Shown: piece by piece, positions 17,235 to 20,390 of the stretch
Position numbering within the stretch: position 1 is the stretch's first letter
How the letters are laid out: every line of letters starts with the position of its first letter
NCBI RefSeq assembly: GCF_003334815.1
Contig: NZ_QOWO01000007.1
From: Escherichia coli
Lineage (GTDB): Bacteria > Pseudomonadota > Gammaproteobacteria > Enterobacterales > Enterobacteriaceae
Reading direction: 5' to 3' (one strand)
Length of the DNA stretch: 64,000 nucleotides
The notes under the pieces: model-generated
Database searches by the model: none
What the model was told of the DNA's origin: nothing
What the model saw: the letters and a program-made list of their open reading frames with translations, nothing else
Translations under genes and position numbers: made by a program

Positions 17235-19874
17235 ATGCTGGGTAAATATAAAGCCGTTCTCGCGCTGTTATTACTGATTATTCTTGTGCCGTTGACGCTG
17301 CTGATGACGCTCGGGCTGTGGGTTCCCACGCTGGCGGGCATCTGGCTACCGCTCGGGACACGTATTGCATTAGATGAAAGCCCACGCATTACGCGTAAAG
17401 GTTTAATCATTCCCGATCTCCGTTATCTGGTGGGAGATTGTCAGCTTGCGCATATCACCAACGCCAGCCTTTCACATCCCAGCCGCTGGTTATTGAACGT
17501 CGGCACGGTAGAACTTGATTCTGCTTGTCTGGCGAAATTGCCGCAGACGGAGCAATCGCCAGCCGCTCCAAAAACACTCGCGCAGTGGCAGGCCATGCTG
17601 CCTAACACCTGGATCAATATCGATAAACTGATTTTTTCTCCCTGGCAGGAATGGCAGGGAAAACTCTCTCTCGCATTAACCTCTGATATCCAGCAACTGC
17701 GTTATCAGGGCGAAAAAGTTAAATTTCATGGCCAGCTGAAAGGGCAACAACTTACAGTCAGCGAACTGGATGTCGTCGCGTTTGAAAATCAGCCGCCGGT
17801 AAAACTGGTGGGGGAATTTGCTATGCCGCTCGTGCCGGATGGACTTCCTGTAAGTGGGCATGCTACTGCGACGTTAAACTTGCCGCAGGAACCGTCACTG
17901 GTGGATGCCGAGCTGGACTGGCAGGAAAATAGCGGGCAATTGATCGTGCTGGCACGGGATAACGGCGATCCGTTGCTCGATTTGCCGTGGCAAATTACTC
18001 GTCAACAATTGACCGTAAGCGATGGTCGCTGGAGCTGGCCGTATGCAGGTTTTCCTTTGAGTGGCCGACTGGGTGTCAAAGTCGACAACTGGCAGGCAGG
18101 GCTTGAGAACGCTCTGGTCAGCGGACGACTGAGTGTGCTGACCCAGGGGCAAGCGGGTAAGGGCAACGCGGTGCTTAATTTTGGCCCAGGAAAATTAAGC
18201 ATGGATAACAGTCAGCTGCCTCTGCAGCTGACCGGTGAAGCGAAACAGGCGGACCTCATTTTATATGCCCGTTTACCTGCGCAGCTAAGTGGAAGTCTGT
18301 CTGACCCAACGCTGACCTTTGAGCCAGGCGCGTTACTTCGTTCAAAGGGAAGAGTCATCGATTCGCTGGACATCGATGAAATCCGCTGGCCTTTAGCGGG
18401 TGTAAAAGTCACCCAACGTGGTGTTGACGGACGTTTGCAGGCCATCTTGCAGGCGCATGAAAATGAACTGGGCGATTTCGTGCTGCATATGGATGGGCTG
18501 GCGAATGATTTTCTCCCTGACGCTGGCCGCTGGCAGTGGCGCTACTGGGGAAAAGGGAGTTTTACACCGATGAATGCCACCTGGGATGTCGCAGGAAAAG
18601 GTGAGTGGCATGACAGCACGATTACGCTGACCGATCTCTCCACCGGTTTCGACCAGTTACAATACGGTACGATGACGGTAGAAAAGCCGCGATTAATTCT
18701 CGACAAGCCCATCGTCTGGGTACGTGACGCACAGCATCCCTCCTTTAGCGGCGCGCTGTCACTGGACGCCGGGCAAACGCTGTTCACTGGCGGCAGTGTG
18801 TTACCGCCATCAACCTTAAAATTTAGCGTCGATGGGCGCGATCCTACCTATTTCCTCTTTAAAGGCGATTTACATGCTGGTGAGATTGGCCCGGTTCGGG
18901 TAAATGGTCGCTGGGACGGTATTCGTCTGCGCGGTAACGCCTGGTGGCCTAAACAATCACTGACCGTATTCCAGCCGCTGGTGCCACCCGACTGGAAGAT
19001 GAACTTACGCGATGGTGAACTGTATGCTCAGGTTGCATTTTCTGCTGCGCCTGAACAAGGATTCCGCGCGGGAGGACACGGCGTGTTGAAAGGCGGTAGT
19101 GCCTGGATGCCAGATAATCAGGTTAACGGTGTCGATTTTGTCCTGCCTTTCCGTTTTGCCGATGGAGCCTGGCATCTGGGGACTCGCGGCCCCGTTACGT
19201 TGCGAATTGCCGAAGTGATTAATCTGGTGACAGCGAAAAATATTACGGCTGATTTGCAAGGGCGTTATCCGTGGACTGAAGAAGAACCCTTGCTGTTGAC
19301 TGATGTTAGCGTCGATGTGTTAGGCGGTAACGTACTGATGAAACAATTACGTATGCCGCAACATGACCCGGCGCTGTTGCGGCTGAATAATCTCTCATCC
19401 AGCGAACTGGTTAGCGCCGTCAATCCGAAACAATTCGCCATGTCCGGGGCATTTAGTGGTGCACTGCCGTTATGGCTGAACAATGAAAAATGGATTGTGA
19501 AAGATGGCTGGCTGGCGAATAGCGGGCCGATGACATTGCGACTGGATAAAGACACTGCGGATGCGGTGGTAAAAGACAATATGACTGCGGGTTCAGCAAT
19601 TAACTGGTTGCGCTATATGGAAATTAGCCGTTCATCGACAAAAATTAATTTAGATAATCTCGGTTTATTAACCATGCAGGCCAACATTACAGGTACCAGT
19701 CGCGTTGATGGTAAAAGCGGTACGGTAAACCTTAATTACCATCATGAAGAGAATATTTTTACGCTGTGGCGCAGTTTACGCTTTGGCGATAATCTCCAGG
19801 CATGGCTGGAGCAGAACGCACGTCTGCCGGGAAATGACTGTCCGCAAGGAAAAGAGTGTGAGGAAAAACAATGA
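17235..19874 (+). CDS. ydbH: AsmA-like envelope protein YdbH
   Basis: 879 aa; N-terminal TM helix; first gene of ydbH-ynbE-ydbL. Confidence 0.9.
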   Translation: MLGKYKAVLALLLLIILVPLTLLMTLGLWVPTLAGIWLPLGTRIALDESPRITRKGLIIPDLRYLVGDCQLAHITNASLSHPSRWLLNVGTVELDSACLAKLPQTEQSPAAPKTLAQWQAMLPNTWINIDKLIFSPWQEWQGKLSLALTSDIQQLRYQGEKVKFHGQLKGQQLTVSELDVVAFENQPPVKLVGEFAMPLVPDGLPVSGHATATLNLPQEPSLVDAELDWQENSGQLIVLARDNGDPLLDLPWQITRQQLTVSDGRWSWPYAGFPLSGRLGVKVDNWQAGLENALVSGRLSVLTQGQAGKGNAVLNFGPGKLSMDNSQLPLQLTGEAKQADLILYARLPAQLSGSLSDPTLTFEPGALLRSKGRVIDSLDIDEIRWPLAGVKVTQRGVDGRLQAILQAHENELGDFVLHMDGLANDFLPDAGRWQWRYWGKGSFTPMNATWDVAGKGEWHDSTITLTDLSTGFDQLQYGTMTVEKPRLILDKPIVWVRDAQHPSFSGALSLDAGQTLFTGGSVLPPSTLKFSVDGRDPTYFLFKGDLHAGEIGPVRVNGRWDGIRLRGNAWWPKQSLTVFQPLVPPDWKMNLRDGELYAQVAFSAAPEQGFRAGGHGVLKGGSAWMPDNQVNGVDFVLPFRFADGAWHLGTRGPVTLRIAEVINLVTAKNITADLQGRYPWTEEEPLLLTDVSVDVLGGNVLMKQLRMPQHDPALLRLNNLSSSELVSAVNPKQFAMSGAFSGALPLWLNNEKWIVKDGWLANSGPMTLRLDKDTADAVVKDNMTAGSAINWLRYMEISRSSTKINLDNLGLLTMQANITGTSRVDGKSGTVNLNYHHEENIFTLWRSLRFGDNLQAWLEQNARLPGNDCPQGKECEEKQ

Positions 19875-20056
19875 AAATTTTACTGGCTGCGTTGACGTCA
19901 TCTTTTATGCTGGTTGGCTGTACGCCTCGCATTGAAGTCGCTGCACCTAAGGAACCGATCACTATCAATATGAACGTTAAAATTGAGCATGAGATCATCA
20001 TCAAGGCAGACAAAGATGTCGAAGAGCTGCTTGAAACTCGTAGCGATCTTTTCTGA
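19871..20056 (+). CDS. ynbE: small lipoprotein YnbE
   Basis: 61 aa; lipobox MLVGC; ATGA overlap with ydbH stop. Confidence 0.8.
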   Translation: MKILLAALTSSFMLVGCTPRIEVAAPKEPITINMNVKIEHEIIIKADKDVEELLETRSDLF

Positions 20057-20063
20057 GGTGATG

Positions 20064-20390
20064 ATGAAGAAAACATTACTTCTTTGTGCGTTTCTTGTTG
20101 GGCTGGTAAGCAGCAATGTAATGGCATTGACTCTGGATGAAGCCAGAACTCAGGAGCGGGTAGGTGAAACATTTTACGGTTATCTGGTTGCGCTGAAAAC
20201 GGATGCTGAAACAGAGAAATTAGTAGCCGACATTAATGCCGAACGTAAAGCGAGTTACCAACAACTGGCAAAGCAAAATAATGTGTCGGTAGATGATATC
20301 GCGAAACTCGCCGGGCAAAAGCTCGTAGCTCGGGCCAAACCGGGGGAATATGTACAAGGGATAAACGGTAAATGGGTGCGAAAATTTTAA
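20064..20390 (+). CDS. ydbL: DUF1318 periplasmic protein YdbL
   Basis: Track ORF 19983..20390; start moved to MKKTLLLCAF signal peptide, 108 aa. Confidence 0.8.
   Translation: MKKTLLLCAFLVGLVSSNVMALTLDEARTQERVGETFYGYLVALKTDAETEKLVADINAERKASYQQLAKQNNVSVDDIAKLAGQKLVARAKPGEYVQGINGKWVRKF

Follow-up and report, generated by a model that had tools for sequence, protein, structure and literature searches.

The window analyzed here, a stretch of 64,000 nucleotides from Escherichia coli, carries three consecutive genes on the + strand between positions 17235 and 20390, which the open reading frame (ORF) list and the raw sequence identify as ydbH, ynbE and ydbL. We conclude with high confidence that the locus represents the chromosomal ydbH-ynbE-ydbL operon of a strain close to K-12 and that it encodes a protein bridge proposed to pass phospholipids from the inner to the outer membrane, with YdbL as its restraining factor. 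The operon is already known and well studied, and it is ordinary apart from one very rare amino acid change in YdbL. A preliminary description of the locus had called it not novel, and rightly so, since the literature already covers every point that was raised there.

We compared the window with the YdbH-YnbE-YdbL system of E. coli K-12 (UniProt P52645, P64448 and P76076) and found the genes, their order, their overlap, the Shine-Dalgarno (SD) motifs and the neighboring genes to be the same. YnbE was 100% identical to its K-12 counterpart, while YdbH and YdbL matched at 878 of 879 and at 107 of 108 positions, respectively. The two substitutions, YdbH Q165H and YdbL G31E, are both rare; the former affects a position that is variable in the family alignment, and the latter affects a conserved glycine. 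Over the 9.7 kb around the operon (14000 to 23700), the window and K-12 differed by three bases only, each resulting in an amino acid change (YdbH Q165H, YdbL G31E and FeaR I136V), and the gene boundaries agree with those in the RefSeq annotation of K-12 MG1655. By megablast, 5410 of the 5426 complete E. coli genomes contained at least 80% of the 3.7-kb segment from 17000 to 20700, which is annotated there as ydbH, ynbE and ydbL. The Q165H allele was present in a single one of these genomes, that of strain 52F4, which shares the ydbH single-nucleotide polymorphism (SNP) but not the ydbL SNP. The exact YdbH protein with this change was found on 26 contigs, whereas the K-12 version occurred on at least 1000. 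As a separate observation, a few records labelled as plasmids also carry the ydbH-ydbL locus (5 places by megablast, 4 by a 37-mer of the K-12 sequence); these are possibly chromosomal pieces with a wrong label or large replicons derived from the chromosome.

The ORF list, RefSeq, NCBIfam, Pfam and the PDB agree on the coordinates and identities that had been proposed for the three genes. YdbH scored 1400 bits against the YdbH equivalog model NF007971 of NCBIfam (cut-off, 824; residues 1 to 878) and matched the YdbH-like family PF11739 of Pfam over residues 14 to 862 (E = 2.3e-290). As an NCBIfam search at E values up to 10 returned no model for YnbE or YdbL, Pfam was used for both, assigning YnbE to PF13617 (Lipoprotein_19/YnbE-like; E = 3.7e-16) and YdbL to PF07027 (DUF1318; E = 1.1e-29). 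In the PDB, chain 28oj_A is YdbL; residues 22 to 108 agree with it at 86 of 87 positions, with one difference. PDB sequence searches with YdbH, with a YdbH profile (E up to 10) and with YnbE gave no match. At the sequence level, the one hint of a relationship to TamB, YhdP or AsmA was a match of YdbH to Pfam DUF748 that remained below threshold (E = 0.25).

A single membrane anchor and the predicted fold bear out the earlier view of YdbH as an AsmA-like protein of 879 amino acids. Hydropathy windows above 1.6 occurred solely within residues 1 to 40, indicating a single N-terminal anchor. An AlphaFold2 model derived from 33 homologues (mean predicted local distance difference test score, 86.6) comprises an N-terminal helix at residues 2 to 35 (helices 2 to 24 and 26 to 35), about 50 beta strands in succession and a further helix at the C terminus. 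The elongated all-beta groove expected of the AsmA-like/repeating beta-groove superfamily is thus present in the predicted model. Its structural matches in AFDB50 were models of the YdbH family from Enterobacterales and Pasteurellaceae, with template modelling (TM) scores of 0.7 to 0.84, and its top Foldseek match in the PDB was the bridge-like lipid transfer protein LPD-3/BLTP1 (E = 5e-6).

The two small proteins had been described as exported, in agreement with our analysis. In YnbE, the lipobox LVGC contains Cys17, and the residue at position +2 is a threonine. A residue other than aspartate at this position leads to outer membrane sorting by the Lol pathway, and YnbE, with its threonine, has no inner membrane retention signal there. 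Further downstream, it harbors an alternating amphipathic beta strand at I30 to I38 (ITINMNVKI), followed by a C-terminal helix and a tail ending in RSDLF. YdbL has a hydrophobic N terminus with a signal peptide, and the crystallized mature protein starts at L22.

The ynbE gene starts inside the ydbH stop codon, its ATG (19871-19873) and the ydbH TGA (19872-19874) forming the ATGA from which the preliminary description had deduced translational coupling. This deduction is in good agreement with published experiments on the same gene pair. Huber et al. (Nat Commun 2019) found that an upstream stop codon made ynbE translation very low or undetectable in a native -99 to +30 reporter and inferred strong coupling (PMC6728339); in addition, the SD was strictly essential for reinitiation at ydbH-ynbE (PMC6728339). 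Reinitiation efficiency also drops with growing intergenic distance, as determined for three E. coli gene pairs including ydbH-ynbE (PMC10666635). The tested -99 to +30 segment of the window shows no difference from K-12.

To assess conservation, we scanned a single genome for each species, using an alignment of 16 closer sequences, and retained the best 80 of 358 confirmed loci, all from Enterobacteriaceae and with YdbH identities of 61 to 96%; wider taxa were sampled at three distant loci. The ydbH/ynbE junction was ATGA in 62 of the 80 species, TAATG in 17 and a gap of +2 in 1, so that a -4 or -1 overlap was kept in 79 species while the surrounding bases varied. An SD-like AAGGA or GAGGA preceded ynbE in all 80. 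An overlap of 4 nt is by itself unremarkable, because neighboring genes on the same strand are most often spaced in this way in E. coli (PMC10666635). Its conservation across species argues against chance.

The proposal in the preliminary description that the module is implicated in phospholipid transport to the outer membrane corresponds to the published model (PMC8593681; PMC11126948; bioRxiv 10.64898/2026.03.16.712125), and the comparison with published ydbH/ynbE studies that was suggested there showed agreement in both gene identities and interpretation. Deletions of tamB, yhdP and ydbH are synthetically lethal together, and the three proteins are needed for outer membrane lipid homeostasis (Ruiz et al., mBio 2021, PMC8593681). 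YdbH and the outer membrane lipoprotein YnbE act together and cross-link in vivo (Kumar et al., PNAS 2024, PMC11126948). The same study proposed that YnbE extends the YdbH groove by beta-strand augmentation and showed that YdbL limits YnbE multimerization (PMC11126948). YdbL binds the C-terminal helix of YnbE, its structure has been solved (De'Ath et al., bioRxiv 10.64898/2026.03.16.712125), and surplus YdbL kills tamB yhdP mutants (bioRxiv 10.64898/2026.03.16.712125). In Pseudomonas aeruginosa, adjacent orthologues behave likewise (PMC12447247).

From these data, the following mechanism can be proposed. YdbH is held in the inner membrane by its N-terminal helix and reaches into the periplasm with a long, twisted beta-sheet groove that is hydrophobic inside. 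YnbE, anchored in the outer membrane, would add its strand I30 to I38 to the final YdbH strand through beta-strand augmentation and may do so as a short multimer. The bridge between the membranes would then be complete, and the acyl chains of phospholipids are thought to slide along it. YdbL, a soluble protein of the periplasm, binds the C-terminal helix of YnbE and prevents a runaway, amyloid-like multimerization. Since an excess of YdbL titrates YnbE away, the relative amounts of the three proteins are important, and the gene layout helps set them: ynbE is translated only by ribosomes that end ydbH at the ATGA and reinitiate with the help of GAGGA, while ydbL, 7 nt further on, has its own SD. 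We infer both that phospholipids are moved by the bridge itself and the direction of this movement.

Several observations weigh against parts of this picture. Kumar et al. themselves state that lipid transport by YdbH-YnbE has had no biochemical demonstration (PMC11126948), and the modelled complex measures about 180 Å, compared to about 250 Å for the periplasm (PMC11126948; PMC12447247), which puts its stoichiometry, or the involvement of an extra partner, in question. Regarding expression, genomic systematic evolution of ligands by exponential enrichment (SELEX) assigns the string TTGAAA-15-AAAAAT in the ldhA/ydbH spacer to ydbH--ydbL (PMC3946193); this candidate promoter of the operon was not conserved outside Escherichia. 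Scans of 16900 to 20700 for consensus sigma-70 promoters and terminators gave matches at chance level, none of them upstream of ydbH, and missed the SELEX candidate. Finally, Huber et al. proposed that local folding of the RNA keeps ynbE from being initiated independently (PMC6728339). The fold of the corresponding segment (19772 to 19900, i.e., -99 to +30) had a free energy of -30 kcal/mol, compared to -32.4 ± 3.2 kcal/mol for shuffled sequences (z = +0.73), so this block was not reproduced and is unsupported here.

Both the missing biochemical demonstration and the short span of the model would suit a trans-envelope bridge with another cargo or role, such as lipoproteins, other envelope components or a structural tethering function, the lipid phenotypes then being indirect. 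AsmA-like relatives have indeed been tied to other processes, TamB to outer membrane protein assembly and GspN to lipoprotein surface transport. We nevertheless regard such a role as improbable, given that the joint loss of TamB, YhdP and YdbH is lethal and disturbs outer membrane lipid homeostasis (PMC8593681), that the groove, as predicted, is uninterrupted and hydrophobic, with the non-polar face of YnbE extending it (PMC11126948), and that YnbE is dispensable for a YdbH-YhdP fusion, in line with an activity common to YdbH and YhdP (PMC12447247). The older name "DctA-YdbH / Dicarboxylate transport", which persists in source annotations, implies yet another function, to which we give practically no credence. 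One N-terminal hydrophobic segment followed by an all-beta periplasmic body does not make a polytopic transporter, so the topology of YdbH rules this reading out; furthermore, the Pfam family is now named "Intermembrane phospholipid transport protein YdbH", and the literature on YdbH covered here holds no experimental support for dicarboxylate transport. As for translation, the ATGA overlap could be incidental to compact gene packing, with ynbE translated independently from its own strong SD. The frequency of 4-nt overlaps in E. coli (PMC10666635), a good GAGGA 6 nt upstream of the ATG and the lack of an unusually stable fold masking the start between -99 and +30 all speak for this. Yet the loss of reporter translation caused by an upstream stop (PMC6728339), the fall of reinitiation as the distance grows (PMC10666635) and the retention of the overlap in all but one of the 80 species, despite varying bases nearby, have already largely refuted independent initiation, which we consider very unlikely. 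A phospholipid bridge whose second component is made by coupled translation remains our preferred reading.

We then examined how far the three genes stay together. In the synteny check across Enterobacteriaceae that had been suggested, ynbE directly followed ydbH in 80 of 80 species, and ydbL followed ynbE in 73. The core of mature YnbE (C.PRIE.AA...PITINMNVKI) was present in all 80. The remaining seven loci (L034, L043, L050, L059, L063, L064 and L083) had no DUF1318-like ORF within 3.8 kb downstream (about 6740 to 10600 in each locus). The C-terminal tail RSD[L/I/M]F of YnbE was present at 73 of the 73 loci with ydbL and at none of the 7 loci without it in this downstream stretch (Fisher P = 3e-10, uncorrected for phylogeny). 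An apparent joint loss of ydbL and the YnbE tail fits the published interface between YdbL and the C terminus of YnbE.

At the three distant loci, where YdbH identity was 26 to 33%, a Lipoprotein_19 gene came right after ydbH, with spacings of -4, +1 and -4. No DUF1318 gene followed ynbE in the two whose contig extends further; the third contig stops right after ynbE. As a side observation, the end of an HI_1241-family gene overlaps the ydbH start at two of the three distant loci. Genes of this family (PF27206) with a 1-nt overlap with the ydbH start codon were recorded at 2177-3001 in L084, 1830-2654 in L085 and 131-949 in L086, beside YdbH homologues of 26 to 28% identity. Their product may represent a different accessory partner at distant loci.

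The G31E substitution in YdbL is the one unusual trait of the operon in the window. Of 73 orthologues from Enterobacteriaceae, 72 have a glycine as residue 31, and the glutamate found here leaves the N-terminal motif A-R-x-x-G-x-V-G-E not intact. A 37-mer with the window allele was found in 0 of the 5426 complete E. coli genomes, compared to 4495 for the K-12 37-mer, of which 3297 at 99% identity or more. Similarly, the exact G31E protein was on 7 contigs, whereas at least 1000 carry the K-12 version. The change leaves family membership untouched but flags the allele as possibly altered. In the preprint on the YdbL structure, R28 and E35, which flank position 31, are needed for full YdbL function (bioRxiv 10.64898/2026.03.16.712125). 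We tentatively suggest, while considering it rather doubtful, that this natural and nearly private allele may weaken or alter the control of YnbE multimerization and, separately, that a YnbE tail kept only together with ydbL would support an interaction of YdbL with this tail as well as YdbL-free bridges in several lineages. Because ydbL is non-essential, a weakened allele could persist.

The ydbL gene starts 7 nt after the ynbE stop codon, and a bioRxiv study from 2026 (10.64898/2026.03.16.712125) gives this TGAGGTGATG junction in its methods. A tandem ATGATG at 20061-20066 offers a second in-frame ATG at 20061; in public records, YdbL has 108 or 109 amino acids, each form being on at least 1000 contigs. 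The SD spacing favors 20064 as the start, which is also where RefSeq and the published constructs place it; the preliminary description named no ydbL start. On the opposite strand, an ORF of 137 amino acids (19759-20172) covers the whole of ynbE and reaches into the end of ydbH on one side and the start of ydbL on the other. This ORF is probably no gene, because it is free of stops for at least 130 codons at just 12 of 80 orthologous loci.

The operon is flanked upstream by the divergent ldhA and downstream by the convergent feaR. In 78 Enterobacteriaceae species, the spacer upstream of ydbH contains a conserved block, A.TG.CACAAT (Table 1), that is possibly a -10 element or a regulatory site. 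The last 20 nt before the ydbH ATG are also at least 90% conserved in these species and include an AGGA; its distance of about 14 nt to the start codon is long for an SD. On the downstream side, the RNA fold of 20385 to 20580 (-60.6 kcal/mol; z = -5.0) encompasses a perfect inverted repeat that is likely a 3'-end hairpin or terminator. The terminator scan missed it because a U-tract is absent on both strands.

Table 1. Positions of the genes, signals, sequence differences and small RNAs (sRNAs) in the window
Feature	Position	Strand	Description
ydbH	17235-19874	+	879 amino acids, ATG start, TGA stop; inner-membrane-anchored AsmA-like/repeating beta-groove protein
ynbE	19871-20056	+	61 amino acids; outer membrane lipoprotein
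ydbL	20064-20390	+	108 amino acids; periplasmic chaperone-like protein (DUF1318), signal peptide 1-21
Candidate sigma-70 promoter TTGAAA-15-AAAAAT	17097-17123	+	Exact string from genomic SELEX list; weak evidence
Conserved block A.TG.CACAAT	17175-17186	+	Most positions at least 90% identical in 78 Enterobacteriaceae species, flanks variable
SNP, K-12 A to window T (YdbH Q165H)	17729	+	Rare; codon 165
SD GAGGA for ynbE	19860-19864	+	Within ydbH coding sequence, 6 nt upstream of ATG
ATGA overlap of ydbH stop and ynbE start	19871-19874	+	Termination-reinitiation site; sequence, published experiments, conservation
SD GAGGTGA for ydbL	20055-20061	+	Overlaps ynbE stop TGA (20054-20056); sequence
SNP, K-12 G to window A (YdbL G31E)	20155	+	Very rare; codon 31
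Perfect 18-bp inverted repeat, 5-nt loop	20524-20564	.	Between convergent ydbL and feaR; right arm covers feaR stop codon
FeaR I136V	21062		Codon 136; difference from K-12
McaS sRNA	2900-2995	-	Above Rfam gathering threshold
FnrS sRNA	6373-6490	+	Above Rfam gathering threshold
MicC sRNA	11302-11422	+	Above Rfam gathering threshold
RydC sRNA	62771-62834	-	Above Rfam gathering threshold

Elsewhere in the window, positions 1 to 9142 gave no alignment to the K-12 stretch compared on that side (2447640-2457500 of the record), which holds prophage and insertion sequence (IS) genes (stfR, tfaR, pinR and an IS5-like element); this would fit a strain without the Rac prophage. At 39576-45344, a single ORF of 1922 amino acids takes the place of the K-12 ydbA autotransporter gene, which is split by IS2 and IS30; ydbA thus appears to be intact in the window.

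The route by which phospholipids reach the Gram-negative outer membrane was a long-standing question, and YdbH-YnbE-YdbL ranks among the three mutually redundant candidates for it. The window adds nothing new on this transport, because its genes are essentially the studied K-12 genes. Of minor value is the quantitative conservation of the overlap and of the gene order in 80 Enterobacteriaceae species, and two leads may serve specialists, namely, the joint loss of ydbL and the C-terminal tail of YnbE and the rare G31E allele.

Among known systems, TamB-TamA is similar to YdbH-YnbE in that an inner-membrane-anchored AsmA-like beta-groove protein needs an outer membrane partner encoded in the same operon, and TamB is genetically redundant with YdbH. 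However, the partner of TamB is an Omp85 beta-barrel instead of a lipoprotein with 44 residues in its mature form, and TamB is much longer than YdbH and has no YdbL-like chaperone. YhdP is likewise a redundant AsmA-like putative phospholipid bridge but, unlike YdbH, it is proposed to span the periplasm alone by means of C-terminal hydrophobic helices; indeed, this region makes YnbE dispensable when fused to YdbH (PMC12447247). The eukaryotic BLTP1/LPD-3, VPS13 and ATG2 are far larger and have other partners, and they share just 6 to 9% sequence identity with YdbH and superimpose poorly over the whole length (TM, 0.13). For YdbL and YnbE, Kumar et al. drew an analogy to the curli chaperone CsgC and the amyloid subunit CsgA, where a periplasmic factor also curbs the amyloid-like beta-strand polymerization of a small secreted protein (PMC11126948). 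The two pairs are not homologous, however, and YdbL binds an alpha-helix of YnbE rather than a beta strand.

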